The notes under the pieces were generated by a model. It was not told the DNA's origin, did not search any database, and saw nothing but the letters and a program-made list of their open reading frames with translations. A stretch of 64,000 nt of DNA from Chitinophagales bacterium (GTDB taxonomy: Bacteria > Bacteroidota > Bacteroidia > Chitinophagales > LD1): the NCBI GenBank assembly GCA_044225825.1, contig JBGAIB010000010.1:20699-84698 (forward strand), in the 5' to 3' direction. Below are positions 6,365 to 13,275 of the stretch, one piece after another. Position 1 is the first letter of the stretch. The number at the start of each line of letters is the position of its first letter. The position numbers were made by a program, and so were the translations under genes.

Positions 6365-7819
6365 ATGGCTCAATACCTCTACCGCCCGGCCCTGGAACTT
6401 GCCGCGATGATACGCGAAGGCAAAGCCACCAGCACGGCTATTGTTACCGAACATCTGGAGCAGATAAAGCAACACAACAGTGCCCTGCATGCACTTGTAA
6501 TGGTATTTGAAGAGGAGGCTTTGGCTACTGCCGCAGCATGTGATGCAGAAGCAGAGGCCGGCCATTTCCGAGGACCATTACATGGGGTACCCGTAACCAT
6601 TAAGGAATCGTTTTGGTTAAAGGGCACCTCCAGCACCAATAACTTTAAGATGTTGAAGGATTTTGTAGCGCCTGAAGACAGCGTGTTGGTGGAGCGCATA
6701 AAAAACAGCGGTGCAGTAATTTTAGGCAAAACCAATGTGCCCCGGAACCTGTTGGATTACCAGGTGGCAGGCGATTTGTATGCCGAGGGTAAAAACCCGT
6801 ATAACACCGATTATGGGCCCGGTGGCAGTAGCGGTGGCGGGGCCGCAGCGCTTGCTGCAGGGTTTACAACGCTTGAACTGGGCAGCGATTTTGGCGGCTC
6901 GGTGCGGGTGCCCTCGAATTTTTGCGGTTTATACGGACTGAAGCCTACCGATAAAACGGTGCCCTTGCATGGCAATATTCCGTTACCGCCTAAGGCCAAA
7001 ACATTTTTAGTGCATATGGCGCAGGCAGGACCGCTGGCGCGCAACATGAACGACCTGGAGGTGTTATGGAAGACGGTAGTAGGGCCGCATGAAAGCGATA
7101 GAAATATACCACGGATAGCCTGGCAAACGCCCACCAAGACCAAACTGAGTGAATATAAAATTGCGTTTACAACAGGTTGGCCGGGCTATGAAGCAAGCAA
7201 CCAGGTTGGGGAAGCGATTCAGCAATTGGTGAACCGGTTTACTGCTGAAGGGGGAAAGGCAGAGAAGGCCATACCCGATGGCACCATACACGAAGATTCG
7301 TTACGCGTATTTGTTTCACTCTTCCCTTATGTAATAGCACAGGGCATGCCCTGGTTTATTCGTGCCCTTGTTAAGCTGGACCTGCGTTTTGGCTTATTGA
7401 AAGGGCAGACAAAGTATTGGAAGGAAATGAACCGATCGTTTAGGATGGATGCCAATGCTTATGCAGAGGCGCTGTTGGAAAGAAGTTTGCTTGTTAAACG
7501 CTGGGAAGAATTTTTTAATACCTACGACTTTTTAATTTGCCCTGTGGCCTTTGGACCGGCTTATAAGCGTTGTAAACTGGGAACCCCGCTTAGTTATGAA
7601 GGCAAAGAGATGCTTTATATAGATTATGTATGGCCCCATAACGCCTGTTTTAATGCATCGGGGCATCCGAGTTTGCACCTGCCGCTGGGTTTGGGTAAGG
7701 AAGGCCTGCCATTGGGATTACAGATAGTGGGACCCTACTGGAGCGAACCTGAACTTATAGCGTTTGGAAAACAACTTGCAGCGCTAACGCCCGGCTTTGT
7801 AAAACCAACCGGATATTAG
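6365..7819 (+). CDS. Amidase (amidase-signature family)
   Basis: 484 aa; Gly/Ser-rich amidase signature (GGSSGGGAAALAAGFTTLELGSDFGGSVRVP) plus the catalytic Ser-cisSer-Lys context. Confidence 0.85.
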   Translation: MAQYLYRPALELAAMIREGKATSTAIVTEHLEQIKQHNSALHALVMVFEEEALATAAACDAEAEAGHFRGPLHGVPVTIKESFWLKGTSSTNNFKMLKDFVAPEDSVLVERIKNSGAVILGKTNVPRNLLDYQVAGDLYAEGKNPYNTDYGPGGSSGGGAAALAAGFTTLELGSDFGGSVRVPSNFCGLYGLKPTDKTVPLHGNIPLPPKAKTFLVHMAQAGPLARNMNDLEVLWKTVVGPHESDRNIPRIAWQTPTKTKLSEYKIAFTTGWPGYEASNQVGEAIQQLVNRFTAEGGKAEKAIPDGTIHEDSLRVFVSLFPYVIAQGMPWFIRALVKLDLRFGLLKGQTKYWKEMNRSFRMDANAYAEALLERSLLVKRWEEFFNTYDFLICPVAFGPAYKRCKLGTPLSYEGKEMLYIDYVWPHNACFNASGHPSLHLPLGLGKEGLPLGLQIVGPYWSEPELIAFGKQLAALTPGFVKPTGY

Positions 7820-10094: not shown

Positions 10095-10513
10095 GTAAAC
10101 AAAAAGAGCAACCCTGTTGAGGATTGCTGTTTGGTACCGAAGGTGGGAATCCCCGCCTGACCGGCTTTGCCTTTCAGTCGGGCAGGCCCGCCTGATTTGA
10201 CTTTGCCATCTCAGTCAGGCAGGGAACCCACACACCCGGAGGTGTGTAAAACAAAAAGAGCAACCCTGTTGAGGATTGCTCGTTGGTACCGAAGGTGGGA
10301 ATCCCCGCCTGACCGACTGCGTCTTACAGTCGGGCAGGGAACCCACACACCCGGAGGTGTGTAAAACAAAAAGAGCAACCCTGTTGAGGATTGCTCTTTG
10401 GTACCGAAGGTGGGAATCCCCGCCTGACCGACTTCGTCTTACAGTCGGGCAGGGAACCCACACACCCGGAGGTGTGTAAAACAAAAAGAGCAACCCTGTT
10501 GAGGATTGCTCTT
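10095..10513 (-). repeat. Tandem array of 3.5 units (period 115 bp; first unit 153 bp). Each unit copies the 3' third of tRNA-Leu (variable arm to CCA) with a ~35-nt hairpin inserted in the T-loop, plus a terminator hairpin.
   Basis: Unit starts at about 10128, 10281, 10396 and 10511 (10511 is the genuine tRNA). Nearly identical copies of tggtaccgaaggtgggaatc…gaacccacacacccggagg…aaaaagagcaaccctgttgaggattgctctt; these produce the track's look-alike ORFs 10167-10364, 10276-10479 and 10391-10621. Confidence 0.85.
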
Positions 10514-10599
10514 TGGTACCGAAGGTGGGAATCGAACCCACACACCCGGAGGGTACACGATTTTGAGTCGTGCGCGTCTACCAGTTCCGCCACTTCGGC
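10514..10599 (-). tRNA. tRNA-Leu (anticodon CAA), type II with long variable arm, CCA encoded
   Basis: Reverse complement reads GCCGAAGTGGCGGAACTGGTAGACGCGCACGACTCAAAATCGTGTACCCTCCGGGTGTGTGGGTTCGATTCCCACCTTCGGTACCA. Acceptor GCCGAAG/CTTCGGT, anticodon loop CTCAAAA, T-arm GTGGGTTCGATTCCCAC. Confidence 0.88.
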
Positions 10600-10612
10600 A
10601 GCTTTGGGAGCG

Positions 10613-10642
10613 CAAATGTAAAAGAAATCGGAAGCCCTGCAA
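10613..10642 (-). promoter_or_regulatory. Putative promoter for tRNA-Leu: -7 box TACATTTG and -33 TTG read on the minus strand
   Basis: The reverse complement of 10613-10620 is TACATTTG; a TTG sits 19 nt upstream; the tRNA 5' end lies about 14 nt downstream. Confidence 0.45.
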
Positions 10643-10659
10643 ACACTTTTATAAGCAGC

Positions 10660-13275
10660 TTATACCTGTTCTTCTAATTCTTTGTATTTCATAATCTGGT
10701 CGAGCGCATCGGGAACTACATCGCTGATAATGGTGATGAAGGAGCCTTTCTCGGCATTTTTAATGGCCCAGTCGATGGCTTCGCTTTCCAGCTTCAACAC
10801 GGTTATTTTTTTGCCGGGGTCGATGTTCTTTATACCCGTGGTAATAAGGCTGATGATCTCGTCCTCGGTTTTTCCGCGCAGGTTTTTATCCTGCCGGATG
10901 ATGATCTCATCAAACACTTTTGCGGCCTCTTCGCCCAGTTCAATGGTATCCTGGTCGCGGCGGTCGCCTACCCCTGCTACGATGCCTACCTTTTTAGTGG
11001 CATCTACCTTACGCACAAATTTGCCTATGGCCTGCATACCGTGGGCATTATGGGCGTAATCGATTAACACCGTATAATCTTTAAAGCGGAACATATTCAT
11101 ACGGCCCGGTGTTTGCGCCGGCGATGGGGCAAAAGTTTCGAGCGCTTGTTTAATATCTTCTGTTTTGAAATCGAACAAGTAAGCTGCCAATACTGCGGCC
11201 AGGGAGTTTTGTATGTTGAATTCAGCTTTGCCACCGAAGGTGAGCGGCACGTTGGCTACCTTATCGACACGGATTTTCCAGTTGCCTTTTAAGATGGTTA
11301 TAAACCCGTTTTCAAATACACAGGCAATGCCATGATTGGCACAATGCTCTTTAATACGCGGGTTGTTTTCGTCCATGCTGAAGAGCGCAATTTTGCAATC
11401 CAGTTCTTCGCGCATTTTGTAAACCAGGTCGTCGTCGGCATTTAATACGGCATAGCCTCCCGGCATTACCGATTTGGCCACCACTGCTTTTACGCGGGCC
11501 AGTTGTTCCAGTGTATCGATGCCCTGCAGGCCCAGGTGGTCGGCGGCAATATTGGTAACCACTGCCAGGTTGCAGTTATGGAAACCCAAACCGGCGCGCA
11601 GAATACCTCCACGGGCACATTCCAGCACGGCAAAATCAACGGTAGGGTCCTTCAACACAAACTCGGCACTGATGGGGCCTGTACAATCACCGCGCATCAT
11701 CAGTTGATTTTGCACATAAACGCCATCGGTAGTAGTAAAGCCAACTTTGTGGCCCATTTGCTTTACAATGTGGGCTATTAGGCGGGTAGTGGTTGTTTTA
11801 CCGTTGGTACCTGATACGGCTATAATGGGAATACGTGCAGAGGAACCCGGAGGATAGAGCATATCAATTACAGGTTCGGCTACGTTACGGCCAATGCCAT
11901 CGGTGGGGTCCAGGTGCATACGGAAGCCTGGTGCAGCGTTTACCTCCAGCACAGCACCACCATTTTCATTAATGGGCACAGTAAGGTCTTCGGCCATGAT
12001 GTCTATACCGCAGATGTCAAGCCCAATAATGCGGGCTATACGTTCGGCCATCATAATATTACTTGGGTGTACCAGGTCGGTAACATCGGTGGCAGTGCCG
12101 CCCGTAGAAAGGTTAGCGGTTGGTTTTAACCACAACTCATAACCATTATCCAGCACAGAATCGAGTGTGAGATTCTTATCTTTTAGAATGTTCAGCGTAA
12201 AGTCATCCACCTTAATAGCAGTCAGCACTTTTTCGTGTCCATATCCACGGCGGGGATCGCTGTTAACAATATCAATCAATTGCTGGATGGTGTGCTTGCC
12301 ATCGCCTATTACAGCCGCCGGTGTGCGCAATGCCGCTGCCACAAATTTGTAGTTGATTACCAATACGCGGTGATCGCGACCGGTAATAAACTTTTCGCAG
12401 ATAACTGCGCGGCCATATTTTTTTGCTGCCGCCATGCCTGCCAGGGCTTCTTCCCAAGTGCGCAGGTTAGTAGTGGCGCCTTTGCCGTGGTTACCATCCA
12501 GTGGTTTGGTAACAACCGGGTAGCCGATTTTTTTGATCGCAGCAGCTAAATCGTCTTCGTCGTAAACTACCGATCCACGAGGTACGGGCACTTCGGCAGC
12601 TTCCAGCAGGTTTTTGGTATCTTCTTTATCGCAGGCAATTTCTACAGCGATGGAAGAAGTGGTAGAAGCTACGGTTGCCTGTATGCGTCTTTGATTTTTC
12701 CCGTAACCCAATTGTACCAACGAGTGCCGGTTGAGGCGTATCCATGGGATATTGCGTTTGATTGCTTCCTCTACAATTGATCCTGTACTTGGCCCCAGGC
12801 GTTCGTCTTCTCGTATTTCGCGGAGCTTTTGAATATCGGCGGCTAAATCATACTCCACATTGGCAATAAGCGCTTCGGCAATAGATACGGCTGCTTTAGC
12901 TGCGAAAACACCGGCCTTTTCCTCGTAATACGAAAACACTACGTGGTATACACCAGGCGTGCTTGTTTCGCGGGTGCGTCCAAAGCCGCAGTCCATACCG
13001 GCAAGGGTTTGTATTTCGAGGGCAATGTGTTCAATTACATGTCCCATCCAGGTGCCTTCTTTAACGCGAGAGAAGAAACCGCCCTCGGTGCCTTCGCTGC
13101 ACCGGTGCGAATACATGGTAGGGAACATCTTTTCGATACGTTCGGAAAAGCCGGGTATTTTATTGGTGGGCTTTTGCTCCATGTCCTCCAGATCGAGGCG
13201 CATTACAATTAACTTGTGACGTTTATTGCTCCAGTAGTTGGGGCCCTTCATTACTTTAATGTCGATAATCTTCAT
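10660..13275 (-). CDS. cphA: Cyanophycin synthetase
   Basis: 871 aa; CphA N-terminal domain (MKIIDIKVMKGPNYWS), ATP-grasp middle domain and C-terminal Mur-ligase-like domain (IIAVSGTNGKTTTTRL). Confidence 0.9.
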   Translation of the reverse strand: MKIIDIKVMKGPNYWSNKRHKLIVMRLDLEDMEQKPTNKIPGFSERIEKMFPTMYSHRCSEGTEGGFFSRVKEGTWMGHVIEHIALEIQTLAGMDCGFGRTRETSTPGVYHVVFSYYEEKAGVFAAKAAVSIAEALIANVEYDLAADIQKLREIREDERLGPSTGSIVEEAIKRNIPWIRLNRHSLVQLGYGKNQRRIQATVASTTSSIAVEIACDKEDTKNLLEAAEVPVPRGSVVYDEDDLAAAIKKIGYPVVTKPLDGNHGKGATTNLRTWEEALAGMAAAKKYGRAVICEKFITGRDHRVLVINYKFVAAALRTPAAVIGDGKHTIQQLIDIVNSDPRRGYGHEKVLTAIKVDDFTLNILKDKNLTLDSVLDNGYELWLKPTANLSTGGTATDVTDLVHPSNIMMAERIARIIGLDICGIDIMAEDLTVPINENGGAVLEVNAAPGFRMHLDPTDGIGRNVAEPVIDMLYPPGSSARIPIIAVSGTNGKTTTTRLIAHIVKQMGHKVGFTTTDGVYVQNQLMMRGDCTGPISAEFVLKDPTVDFAVLECARGGILRAGLGFHNCNLAVVTNIAADHLGLQGIDTLEQLARVKAVVAKSVMPGGYAVLNADDDLVYKMREELDCKIALFSMDENNPRIKEHCANHGIACVFENGFITILKGNWKIRVDKVANVPLTFGGKAEFNIQNSLAAVLAAYLFDFKTEDIKQALETFAPSPAQTPGRMNMFRFKDYTVLIDYAHNAHGMQAIGKFVRKVDATKKVGIVAGVGDRRDQDTIELGEEAAKVFDEIIIRQDKNLRGKTEDEIISLITTGIKNIDPGKKITVLKLESEAIDWAIKNAEKGSFITIISDVVPDALDQIMKYKELEEQV

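Follow-up and report, generated by a model that had tools for sequence, protein, structure and literature searches.

The tandem array that follows the tRNA gene of the 64-kb window (the whole stretch of Chitinophagales DNA that was analyzed) is likely to be a nuclease-less, tandemly amplified remnant of a family of selfish elements that reside at tRNA genes. The repeated unit belongs to a recurrent architecture in which an intact tRNA gene is accompanied by a small GIY-YIG nuclease gene and by a partial tRNA copy that carries a palindrome in a conserved loop. We found this architecture at many different tRNAs in several phyla; the initial annotation of the window, which described the array itself, had overlooked it.

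The single tRNA that ARAGORN detects in the window is a tRNA-Leu(CAA), to which Rfam RF00005 gives 58.5 bits, its gathering score being 29. Approximately 14 nt upstream of its 5' end lies a candidate promoter, the boxes of which we take to resemble the Bacteroidetes TTTG/TAnnTTTG consensus. As assembled, three head-to-tail units of 115, 115 and 152 bp lie 3' of the tRNA and are followed by a fourth terminator (Table 1). When parsed from CCA to CCA, each unit consists of the terminator AAGAGCAATCCTCAACAGGGTTGCTCTTTTTGTTTT, a 5-nt filler (ACACA), the 19-nt segment CCTCCGGGTGTGTGGGTTC, which is identical to the tRNA from the variable arm up to C56, a hairpin (hereafter HP), and GATTCCCACCTTCGGTACCA, which is the last 20 nt of the tRNA from G57 to CCA. 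In every unit the HP interrupts the T-loop precisely at the junction of TTC and GATT (C56^G57), such that each surplus tRNA copy is split by an insert of 35-72 nt at this position, and the HP is absent from the real tRNA. Units 1 and 2 differ from one another by 1 nt, and unit 3 differs in a terminator base and in the interiors of its HPs. ARAGORN, Rfam, TRF and the parsing of the units thereby bear out an earlier description of the locus as an intact tRNA-Leu(CAA) with a tandem array of tRNA 3' copies and terminators behind it, including the exact position of the hairpin, the doubled hairpin of the most distal unit and the four terminators between the tRNA and the lipase gene. Of the unit sizes given there, 115 bp stands for the two proximal units; the most distal one is 152 bp in length and not 153 bp.

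Table 1. Features of the tRNA-Leu(CAA) locus, in window coordinates
Feature	Position	Strand	Remarks
Putative Bacteroidota-type promoter	10613..10646	-	read from the sequence
Candidate promoter box TTTG	10643..10640		19-nt spacing to the next box
Candidate promoter box TAcaTTTG	10620..10613		
tRNA-Leu(CAA)	10514..10599	-	intact, encoded CCA, unbroken T-loop TTCGATT; ARAGORN, Rfam RF00005
Unit 1	10399..10513	-	115 bp
Unit 1 terminator	10513..10478		
Unit 1 filler	10477..10473		ACACA
Unit 1 tRNA ~38-56 copy	10472..10454		
Unit 1 hairpin	10453..10419	-	reference HP copy, CCTGCCCGACTGTAAGACGAAGTCGGTCAGGCGGG, 35 nt; arms CCTGCCYGACT / RRTCAGGCGGG
Unit 1 tRNA 57-76 copy	10418..10399		
Unit 2	10284..10398	-	115 bp
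Unit 2 terminator	10398..10363		
Unit 2 filler	10362..10358		
Unit 2 tRNA 5' segment	10357..10339		
Unit 2 hairpin	10338..10304		1 nt different from the unit 1 hairpin
Unit 2 tRNA 3' segment	10303..10284		
Unit 3	10132..10283	-	152 bp
Unit 3 terminator	10283..10248		ACGAGC variant
Unit 3 filler	10247..10243		
Unit 3 tRNA 5' segment	10242..10224		
Unit 3 hairpin 3a	10223..10187		37 nt
Unit 3 hairpin 3b	10186..10152		35 nt
Unit 3 tRNA 3' segment	10151..10132		
Fourth terminator copy	10097..10131	-	AACAGC variant; unique sequence after it, up to the T9SS lipase gene
T9SS lipase gene	start codon 9997		Pfam matches

TRF reports the array as the sole sizeable tandem repeat of the window, with a period of 115 bp, 2.8 copies and 98% matches, and with an overlapping period of 152 bp. 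The component motifs, the HP among them, each occur four times and are confined within the window to the array, where shuffled sequences lead one to expect none; terminator-like sites number four against 1.1 expected. All four terminators are of one type, as would be expected from purely local duplication, a point against descent from a selfish element. Two spurious ORFs overlap the array (10215..10541 and 10324..10593). A CRISPR array was rejected as a description of the locus, given that the whole 115-bp unit repeats and that there are no unique spacers.

Beyond the window, the HP pattern CCTGCCYGACT-N6-16-RRTCAGGCGGG is present in at least 119 genome loci in Bacteroidota, Ignavibacteriota, Marinimicrobia and Planctomycetota, where our own arithmetic, assuming even base composition, predicts approximately 6 chance matches in 596 Gb. 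Tandem HP-HP pairs also occur outside the window, and this dispersal agrees with the earlier suggestion that the hairpin multiplies independently as a MITE- or REP-like module. Among the matches listed, about one HP copy in five lies at C56^G57 of a partial tRNA copy, within GGTTC^GA(A/T)TCC, and the tRNAs concerned are Leu-CAA, Leu-GAG, Lys, Ser, Arg (three times), Trp and Val; the split copy is located downstream of the intact tRNA, on the same strand and with the same identity. No direct repeats that could represent target-site duplications are found at the T-loop insertions. Across HP copies in general, direct repeats occur in 15% versus 2.4% of controls, mostly within pre-existing heptamer arrays. 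When the HP is removed in silico from the HP loci, ARAGORN places it in no confidently called full-length tRNA, the exception being L119, where an ambiguous 'tRNA-???' call spans the HP site in a near-full-length pseudo-copy. A tRNA intron of the group I or archaeal bulge-helix-bulge kind was rejected on this ground and for want of an Rfam ribozyme match. A dif/Xer-like site was likewise considered on account of the 11+6+11 geometry and rejected, as loop length ranges between 6 and 16 nt and single genomes contain many copies. A phage origin was rejected as well, since the HP pattern has 2 matches in 2.9 million viral contigs and close relatives of the nuclease are few there.

At many HP loci, a small GIY-YIG nuclease gene of UPF0213/SLX1 type forms part of the unit. 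Clustering of the 1427 ORFs that lie within approximately 4 kb of HP copies (119 HP loci of 8 kb) yields the GIY-YIG family as the one common to the most loci (8) and as the sole family of nuclease or mobility type; none of the 15 largest clusters is a transposase or an integrase. Loci of the downstream type, that of the window among them, run from the intact tRNA through a terminator, the ORF, the T-stem 5' strand with TTC and the palindrome to a segment from G57 to the tRNA 3' end and a last terminator. The nuclease gene stands directly beside the intact tRNA gene on the same strand, with the partial tRNA duplicate on its far side. Units bearing the ORF are found at L026, L043, L064, L096 (three copies), L103 and L105 (two copies), with Pfam GIY-YIG E values of 6e-15 to 5e-19. 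The related ORFs encode 79-86 aa (typically ~85), comprising the catalytic domain alone with no appended DNA-binding domain, and their nearest solved relatives are the UPF0213 proteins BH0048 (1ZG2; E = 3e-11) and EF2693 (1YWL; 2e-10) and SLX1 (1e-4). Tyr5, Tyr16, Arg26, His30 and Glu62 are invariant in the alignment, and we presume that they match the GIY-YIG catalytic residues. The reading frame itself crosses GGTTC into the 5' arm of the HP and stops there, with GSLPD as its last codons. A GS[LP]P[DAEGV]-stop ending, which is GGTTC plus CCTGCC... in translation, is present in about 50 of 120 family proteins (37 with a stricter pattern). In the metagenome loci that encode relatives of the nuclease, an intact same-strand tRNA is adjacent in 60 of 80 (17 upstream, 46 downstream), and a CCYGCC-type palindrome lies within 400 nt in 45 of 80, versus 1 of 31 control windows. 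The loop positions stay the same between relatives of the nuclease, but the palindrome type differs. One such locus is 97% identical between Pedobacter soli and P. kyungheensis, and what separates the two species there is a segment of about 230 nt, the ORF. Arrays, too, are frequent, being present at L096 (three units, closed chromosome), L105, L054, L068, L136 and L189. At 11 of 21 loci, the sequence behind the outermost tRNA 3' copy is unlike that behind the intact tRNA and the internal units, which fits an element that carries its own tRNA end and terminator.

These observations suggest how the selfish element might work. Its autonomous form would be a gene for an ~85-aa GIY-YIG protein beside an intact tRNA and a palindrome-split partial tRNA duplicate. 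Read as an insertion, the element would consist of tRNA 57-76 plus terminator, the optional ORF, a short T-stem copy and the HP, placed at C56^G57. An element that begins with the tRNA 57-76 patch and is inserted at C56^G57 would therefore bring the piece that regenerates the tRNA and push the original 3' end downstream. The nuclease would break tRNA-gene DNA at or near the conserved loop, and repair through short tRNA-derived homologies would copy the element in. Misaligned repair between direct repeats may then add or remove units, a step for which phage SegB provides an experimental precedent. The palindrome would mark the end of the element and destroy the loop motif in the surplus copy. 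The precise C56^G57 junction, the element's own terminator at 11 of 21 loci and the ORF polymorphism between sister species may be read as indirect signs of copying-in at an element-free allele. Since the intact tRNA keeps a cleavable site when the target is regenerated, the element does not sit easily with classical homing.

As for the window, a search of all 64 kb with the family profile in six frames detects no GIY-YIG family ORF, nor do the units show any trace of one. By analogy with the ORF-bearing loci, we infer that the array descends from an ORF-bearing unit whose ORF was lost, or else from a unit that never carried it. A single founder unit, marked by its junction (the ACACA filler), would have been amplified to three, with the HP doubling again in unit 3. 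The three units probably arose by unequal crossing-over, as the initial annotation had suggested, or by duplication, at the 3' end of the tRNA.

Chief among the other explanations is that the HP is an autonomous REP/MITE-like palindrome that inserts after TTC, with the T-loop TTC^GA as its best site, and survives only in dispensable tRNA fragments; slippage or unequal crossing-over would have produced the fragments, and the GIY-YIG genes would be unrelated neighbors that share a liking for tRNAs. Roughly three-quarters of the strict HP copies elsewhere are solo, with lineage-specific flanks and no GIY-YIG gene within 4 kb, and because of this the HP may be moved by some agent other than the GIY-YIG nuclease. 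The flanks also betray a preferred site (of 123 copies, 65 have T at -2 and about 60 have GA at +1/+2; TTC^GA and TTC^GG are the commonest junctions), tandem HP-HP pairs like that of unit 3 occur, and tRNA 3'-end repeats have arisen at E. coli tyrT/tyrV without HP or GIY-YIG gene. Against this stand the ORF stop codon within the HP in ~40% of the nuclease family members, the enrichment of palindromes around the ORFs, and the variation of palindrome type with the nuclease relative at constant loop positions. Moreover, no RAYT, IS200-type or other transposase recurs near the HPs in the 8-kb loci, and the arms are identical across phyla, unlike those of species-specific REP families. We therefore consider an autonomous palindrome unlikely, although it is the strongest competitor of the selfish tRNA element.

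It is less probable still that the array is functional RNA, in which tRNA-3'-like fragments with an extended T-arm work as small RNAs or lure away, as decoys, enzymes or toxins that bind T-arms, or that the four terminators insulate the lipase gene from transcription of the tRNA. The units are predicted to fold very stably (unit 1 at -56.1 kcal/mol, z = -6.2), hairpin 3a retains its pairing through changes on both arms (CGACT/AGTCG to TGACT/AGTCA), and the analogous E. coli tyrT repeats yield the RttR small RNA. However, palindrome arm symmetry can persist through DNA-level repair with no selection on RNA. Mismatches in the HP arms weakly favor the tRNA-sense strand, and palindromes of the upstream type are perfectly symmetric. 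Each unit opens with a strong terminator (12-13 bp plus U-tract), and downstream units should therefore be weakly transcribed. Partial tRNA copies decay elsewhere, with T-stem mismatches at L096 and L130 and a diverged 3' end at L043, and no Rfam family matches the unit: in the window the tRNA alone reaches threshold, and sub-threshold miRNA and plastid matches are chance matches to the hairpins. The same design at unrelated tRNAs, in two orientations, better suits a DNA parasite. On the selfish-element reading, the array today probably contributes nothing beyond stable hairpins and additional terminators in the stretch from the tRNA to the lipase gene.

Scars left by integrase-type islands or phages that repeatedly integrated at the tRNA-Leu 3' end and were lost are very improbable. 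Direct repeats of a tRNA 3' segment are a hallmark of such integrations (PMC9897764), but here merely 115 bp separate the repeats, with no cargo, and the hairpin breaks all copies at one identical base. The units have a single junction and a single terminator in common, which indicates that they were duplicated as a unit, and the HP pattern is nearly absent from viral contigs. The 17 ORFs between 2.1 and 25.6 kb have housekeeping or metabolic Pfam assignments and include no integrase or transposase, in agreement with earlier statements that no integrase is nearby and that the array is not an attL/attR pair. The proposal that the array is a scar linked to an acquired cyanophycin cluster finds no support, in that relatives have the same order of asparaginase, S51 peptidase and cphA (CphA 86-92% identical). 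With the lipase and CphA homologs as synteny anchors, no orthologous tRNA-Leu(CAA) site, whether empty or ORF-bearing, was found in this lineage: the lipase homologs (67-72% identity) lie in unrelated gene neighborhoods, and next to the CphA homologs (86-92% identity) the cyanophycin genes are kept with no tRNA after cphA.

An assembler's false expansion of a single tRNA and terminator is equally improbable: in an independent short-read assembly of the same sample (Logan SRR28480388) contigs end on both sides of the array, as a repeat would lead one to expect, and short reads are unable to resolve it, but the units differ at defined positions, with a different structure in unit 3, and are therefore not assembler stutter, and independent genomes, the closed chromosome CP058703.1 among them, show both the HP and the entire architecture again.

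The selfish tRNA element resembles several known systems in part. REP/BIME sequences with their RAYT, Rickettsia palindromic elements and yeast mitochondrial GC clusters are mobile palindromes. Like them, the HP is a short, GC-rich, imperfect palindrome that is dispersed, sometimes tandem, free of obvious target duplication and tolerated only where harmless; its at least 119 loci agree with the dispersed 20-40-nt imperfect palindromes of REP/RAYT or IS200/IS605 systems. It differs in that its arms are conserved across phyla and not species-specific, in its preference for conserved tRNA loops and in its overlap with a GIY-YIG ORF; no transposase-like family, such as the Y1 (HUH) transposase of those systems, recurs within the 8-kb loci, and their GTAG head is absent, the HP starting with CCTGCC. 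At E. coli tyrT/tyrV, the classical precedent for an ORF-less array, tandem units lie directly 3' of the tRNA (178 bp x 3.1 in the reference that we checked), and each contains the last 19 nt of the tRNA, starting in the T-loop at A58, much as the three units of the window end in a tRNA 3' end. However, the E. coli units have no hairpin insertion, no T-stem 5' strand, no terminator at the unit start and no known link to a nuclease gene; their sequence is unrelated, and they give rise to the RttR small RNA and tpr. With integrase islands and prophages the element shares inserted DNA that replaces the displaced part of the tRNA and leaves the gene intact, with a partial tRNA copy at the far end (PMC9897764), and the distal copy with a different downstream flank in 11 of 21 loci resembles an attR. 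Unlike them, the element family has no integrase, measures 0.1-0.35 kb rather than kilobases, forms tandem arrays and has a palindrome-split copy; the uninterrupted identical core that both copies of an att site possess is absent from the window, where all surplus copies are split.

The closest comparison is with SegB of phages T4 and T6, a free-standing GIY-YIG homing endonuclease in a tRNA gene cluster, whose cleavage motif, RAWTSGAAC, is the T-loop on the other strand, and which amplifies tRNA-containing segments in tandem in a manner that depends on the nuclease and on recombination (PMC13096335). Common to both are a GIY-YIG gene among tRNA genes (60 of 80 loci), a motif at the very place of the HP, and segmental tandem amplification, as in the window and the arrays elsewhere. 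A nuclease ORF within the element is present at the six ORF-bearing loci and absent from the window. SegB loci have neither a palindrome nor a loop-split partial tRNA copy, and SegB itself is encoded by phages and includes a DNA-binding region. The I-TevI/Seg architecture of approximately 200 aa or more is absent from the chromosomal proteins described here. That the nuclease is of the SLX1/UPF0213 type with no DNA-binding domain, and not of the Seg/I-TevI type, counts against the reading favored here.

SLX1 cuts branched and stem-loop DNA, a type of substrate that would suit the palindrome or the loop target. To our knowledge, UPF0213 proteins have not been connected with tRNA genes or with mobility. 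We tentatively entertain a broader possibility, somewhat doubtful on present evidence: that UPF0213/SLX1-type nucleases and GC-rich palindromes form a hitherto unrecognized class of mobile element in which a structure-specific nuclease would insert DNA at the conserved hairpin tips of tRNA genes (T-loop 56^57, D-loop 20^21) with no integrase or transposase. The tRNA would be regenerated from the carried patch, palindrome-only derivatives would have spread across phyla, and the window array would be a non-autonomous member mobilized or amplified in trans.

Islands that carry an integrase classically land at tRNA genes, which phage GIY-YIG nucleases are known to cut. As far as we have found, no chromosomal parasite of ~0.3 kb that combines a minimal nuclease gene with a palindrome and a tRNA patch of its own has been described: the searchable literature, which mostly leaves out subscription journals and whose silence is not proof, contains no description of a palindrome plus GIY-YIG tRNA element. 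For annotation, the finding flags spurious ORFs and GIY-YIG gene calls that are lengthened by read-through into the hairpin or the neighboring tRNA. If the element is what we propose, it would provide a function for part of the uncharacterized UPF0213 family, account for a class of partial tRNA genes as well as for the assembly breaks beside tRNAs, supply biochemists with a compact nuclease together with its site, and identify a dispersed palindrome that crosses phyla.

In the 64-kb window, ARAGORN predicted a single tRNA, the tRNA-Leu(CAA), and this gene is followed by three tandem units (U1, U2 and U3). Each unit consists of a terminator hairpin of 12-13 bp with its U-tract, a 5-base filler (ACACA), 19 nt that run from the tRNA variable arm to C56 and are identical to the tRNA, a GC-rich imperfect hairpin (HP) of 35 nt, and 20 nt from G57 to the CCA end; U3 contains a tandem HP pair of 37 + 35 nt. 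Each component occurs four times in the 64 kb, always at this locus, and shuffled sequences yielded none. The array is real and beyond chance. We re-derived every part of the structure described in the initial annotation, save that the distal unit is 152 bp rather than 153 bp. The array is the sole substantial tandem repeat of the window; a 24-bp repeat (2.3 copies, 80% matches) lies within the cyanophycin synthetase gene at 11385..11443.

Features of the tRNA-Leu(CAA) locus, in window coordinates
Feature	Position	Strand	Remark
Cyanophycin synthetase gene (cphA)	13275..10660	-	precedes tRNA-Leu(CAA)
tRNA-Leu(CAA), CCA encoded	10599..10514	-	ARAGORN; Rfam 58.5 bits
U1, 115 bp	10513..10399	-	starts directly after tRNA CCA
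U2, 115 bp	10398..10284	-	head-to-tail with U1
U3, 152 bp	10283..10132	-	head-to-tail with U2
Fourth terminator	10131..10097	-	after U3
T9SS-sorted lipase, start codon	9997	-	about 100 bp past fourth terminator
First unit, insertion register	10533..10419	-	C56^G57 reading
Second unit, insertion register	10418..10304	-	C56^G57 reading
Third unit, insertion register	10303..10152	-	C56^G57 reading

The ACACA junction is common to all units, which shows that one founder unit was amplified to three. Outside HP, only one of the 80 bases of the unit is variable. The HP interiors vary more: those of U1 and the second U3 copy (U3b) differ at 4 of 12 central positions, and the first U3 copy (U3a) differs further still, with pairing kept through changes on both arms. 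Since the tRNA- and terminator-derived parts are identical while the HP interiors have diverged, this suggests homogenisation against the functional tRNA, or older HPs. The U3 HP underwent one extra doubling.

We scanned one genome per species for HP using the pattern CCTGCCYGACT-N6-16-RRTCAGGCGGG and observed at least 119 loci, with about 6 matches expected by chance (our estimate, assuming even base composition). Chance probably accounts for the few matches in high-GC Alphaproteobacteria and Actinobacteria. The same arms are dispersed over several phyla, bearing out the earlier proposal of a MITE-like module. Among the matches listed, Bacteroidota hosts include Chitinophagaceae, Saprospiraceae, Cyclobacteriaceae, Rikenellaceae, Lentimicrobiaceae, Pedobacter, Psychroflexus and Parafilimonas, and hosts beyond this phylum include Ignavibacteriota, Marinimicrobia, Planctomycetota and Omnitrophota; several copies in one genome are frequent, and 28 nt is the most frequent length, with longer variants differing centrally. 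HP is nearly absent from viruses (2 matches in 2.9 million viral contigs). Roughly three-quarters of the strict copies among the matches listed are solo, with lineage-specific flanks and no nuclease gene within 4 kb. In one Rikenellaceae genome the flanks are heptamer arrays; in Bacteroidales and Psychroflexus they are other short repeats, and in Planctomycetota they are inverted repeats. HP junctions prefer T at -2 and GA at +1/+2. The solo copies and this preference keep alive the view that HP is an independent mobile palindrome. In the Rikenellaceae MAG CAZWFL (L012, L038, L062, L073, L082, L110, L124), HPs lie inside long GGTCTTC or GGGCTTC heptamer arrays, always with the junction TTC^GG; these heptamers could be microsatellites that were there beforehand and served as targets, or the traces of repeated insertion events.

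About one-fifth of the HP copies among the matches listed are preceded by ...GGTTC and followed by GA(A/T)TCC and a tRNA 3' end. When HP was removed in silico and ARAGORN was rerun, the HP site fell within no confidently called full-length tRNA; the exception is a Marinimicrobia tRNA-Val locus (L119), where an ambiguous 'tRNA-???' was called across the HP site of a near-full-length pseudo-copy. The other HP-split fragments lie 80-600 nt downstream of an intact tRNA, on the same strand and with the same 3' end, and the tRNAs concerned are Leu-CAA (five loci including the window), Leu-GAG, Lys-CTT, Ser, Arg-TCT, Arg-ACG, Arg-CCG, Trp and Val. Because split copies lie downstream of so many different intact tRNAs, a clean intact tRNA with a surplus copy that is interrupted at C56^G57 is the general pattern and not peculiar to the window.

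Variants of this layout were also observed. The near-full-length pseudo-copies of L119 (~7030-7300, minus-strand orientation) have HP in the T-loop and the anticodon loop replaced by a small palindrome, CCCGCCTGGGCGGG, and the last one contains three tandem HP-like palindromes. At a Cyclobacteriaceae tRNA-Leu-CAA locus (L099), the intact gene is flanked on both sides by 5' pseudo-copies in which a different hairpin, TCCCGCTAAGGCGGGA, replaces the D-arm-to-anticodon region, and a separate T-loop copy has HP. A tRNA-Leu-like pseudo-copy at a viral contig end (L215) has two 20-nt palindromes before TTC (positions 53/54) and not after it; thus, the T-loop position is not absolutely fixed across all relatives.

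At several loci (L026, L043, L064, L096, L103, and L105 with two units), an ORF of about 85 codons occupies the interval separating the terminator from the T-stem copy; L096, on a closed chromosome (CP058703.1), has three tandem ORF-bearing units of 324 bp each. These ORFs match the Pfam GIY-YIG profile with E = 6e-15 to 5e-19. Among 1427 clustered ORFs from the 119 HP loci listed, the GIY-YIG family is common to the most loci (8) and is the only recurring family of nuclease or mobility type, with no transposase or integrase cluster among the 15 largest. The family consists of the catalytic domain only, its nearest solved structures being the UPF0213 proteins BH0048 and EF2693, followed by SLX1, and its invariant residues are Tyr5, Tyr16, Arg26, His30 and Glu62, which we take to be catalytic. 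The ORF reads through GGT-TCC-CTG-CCC-GAC-TGA, so that GSLPD forms the C-terminus of the protein and the stop codon falls within HP. We counted about 50 C-termini of the form GS[LP]P[DAEGV] among 120 database relatives (37 under a stricter pattern), indicating that the ORF-HP overlap is a family trait. The annotated C-termini of P0211, P0212, P0228, P0197 and P0200 (...VAQLDRATVS, ...APVAQ) are the translated 5' part of the downstream tRNA (GTAGCTCAGTTGGATAGAGC...), so that read-through into the adjoining tRNA or hairpin makes many database entries of the family over-long.

Starting from the protein, we surveyed 80 metagenome loci with nuclease relatives of 42-65% identity. An intact same-strand tRNA directly adjoins the ORF in 60 of them (17 upstream of the ORF, 46 downstream), and a CCYGCC...GGCRGG palindrome lies within 400 nt in 45 of the 80, compared with 1 of 31 control windows from the same contigs. 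The upstream type has a very regular order: tRNA 1-20, palindrome, tRNA 21 to ~35, ORF and intact tRNA. Its palindrome, most often the perfect 20-mer CCTGCCTGCCGGCAGGCAGG, lies at GGATA^GAGC of the D-loop. Different palindromes occupy the same loop positions in L144, L186 and L204 and at Gln, Asn and Pro tRNA loci. Both types have a constant palindrome position and a variable opposite end of the duplicated tRNA piece, the latter lying 7-10 nt before C56 in ORF-bearing units, compared with 8 to ~60 nt in ORF-less units.

Pedobacter soli (L020) and P. kyungheensis (L112) are 97% identical across the tRNA-Arg(CCT) locus and both have HP-split partial copies, whereas the GIY-YIG ORF, about 230 nt, is present in P. 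soli only. At this locus, HP occupies the D-loop of 5' pseudo-copies and is oriented against the tRNA. Units without an ORF, like those of the window, were also seen beside Lys, Arg, Trp, Val and Glu tRNAs (L054, L068, L077, L119, L133, L136), sometimes adjoining ORF-bearing units; ORF-less units are probably derivatives. No ORF of the family occurs anywhere in the 64-kb window. Two ORFs of 108 and 89 codons (10215..10541 and 10324..10593, minus strand) cross the array; both are products of the repeats without a match to the GIY-YIG profile, and are thus likely gene miscalls. Each array unit has a predicted fold of -56 kcal/mol (z = -6.2), which would be consistent with a function as RNA, but three observations make this unlikely: a strong terminator stands at the start of every unit, partial copies have decayed at other loci, and no Rfam family matches. 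Earlier suggestions of an att-type recombination scar or an acquired island find no support, as none of the 17 ORFs between 2.1 and 25.6 kb is a mobility gene and relatives with 86-92% identical CphA (L208, L209, L210) retain the asparaginase/S51 peptidase/cphA arrangement. After cphA, these relatives have no tRNA and the genes differ in each, placing the synteny break exactly at the tRNA and array (10097..10660).

Read in the insertion register at C56^G57, the unit becomes tRNA 57-76 with terminator, the ORF where present, a short T-stem copy with TTC, and HP. Such an insert would rebuild the tRNA from its own patch and push the original 3' end away. In keeping with this, the sequence following the most distal 3' copy is unrelated to that following the intact tRNA or internal units at 11 of 21 loci; at 7 of 21, including the window, it is the same as after the intact tRNA. 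The architecture and its recurrence are observed, as are the overlap of ORF and HP and the polymorphism of the ORF; beyond these, we infer four steps. The nuclease would cut tRNA-gene DNA at or near a conserved loop, and repair through short tRNA-derived homologies would install the element. Repeated or misaligned repair between direct repeats would then produce arrays in which the first copy alone stays intact, and the palindrome would mark the element end, the loop motif of the surplus copy being destroyed. Because such an element restores its target, a site open to cleavage is left behind, at odds with classical homing.

The sole experimentally studied analogue is SegB, a GIY-YIG nuclease of the phage T4/T6 tRNA cluster. 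The motif at which it cleaves, RAWTSGAAC, is the opposite strand of the T-loop, and the enzyme causes tandem amplification of a tRNA-containing segment in a manner that depends on the nuclease and on recombination (PMC13096335). As a system, the element resembles this free-standing homing element, but its nuclease is of the SLX1/UPF0213 type and lacks a DNA-binding domain. Integrative islands likewise bring a replacement tRNA end, whereas the element has no integrase; unlike both, it has a palindrome. Among classical cases, E. coli tyrT/tyrV comes nearest to the window as an ORF-less array: it has 3.1 copies of a 178-bp unit, and every copy includes the final 19 nt of the tRNA, from a point within the T-loop onwards; RttR and tpr are annotated there. 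In K-12 (L239, 705..1263), the tRNA-derived part starts at A58, 1-2 bases from the HP insertion point. Breakpoints in the T-loop may be common to tRNA-linked repeats in general. We found no description of a GIY-YIG/palindrome tRNA element in the searchable literature, the coverage of which is incomplete. The best explanation of the window locus is that it is what remains, amplified and without the nuclease gene, of a GIY-YIG/palindrome element that is widespread at tRNA genes.
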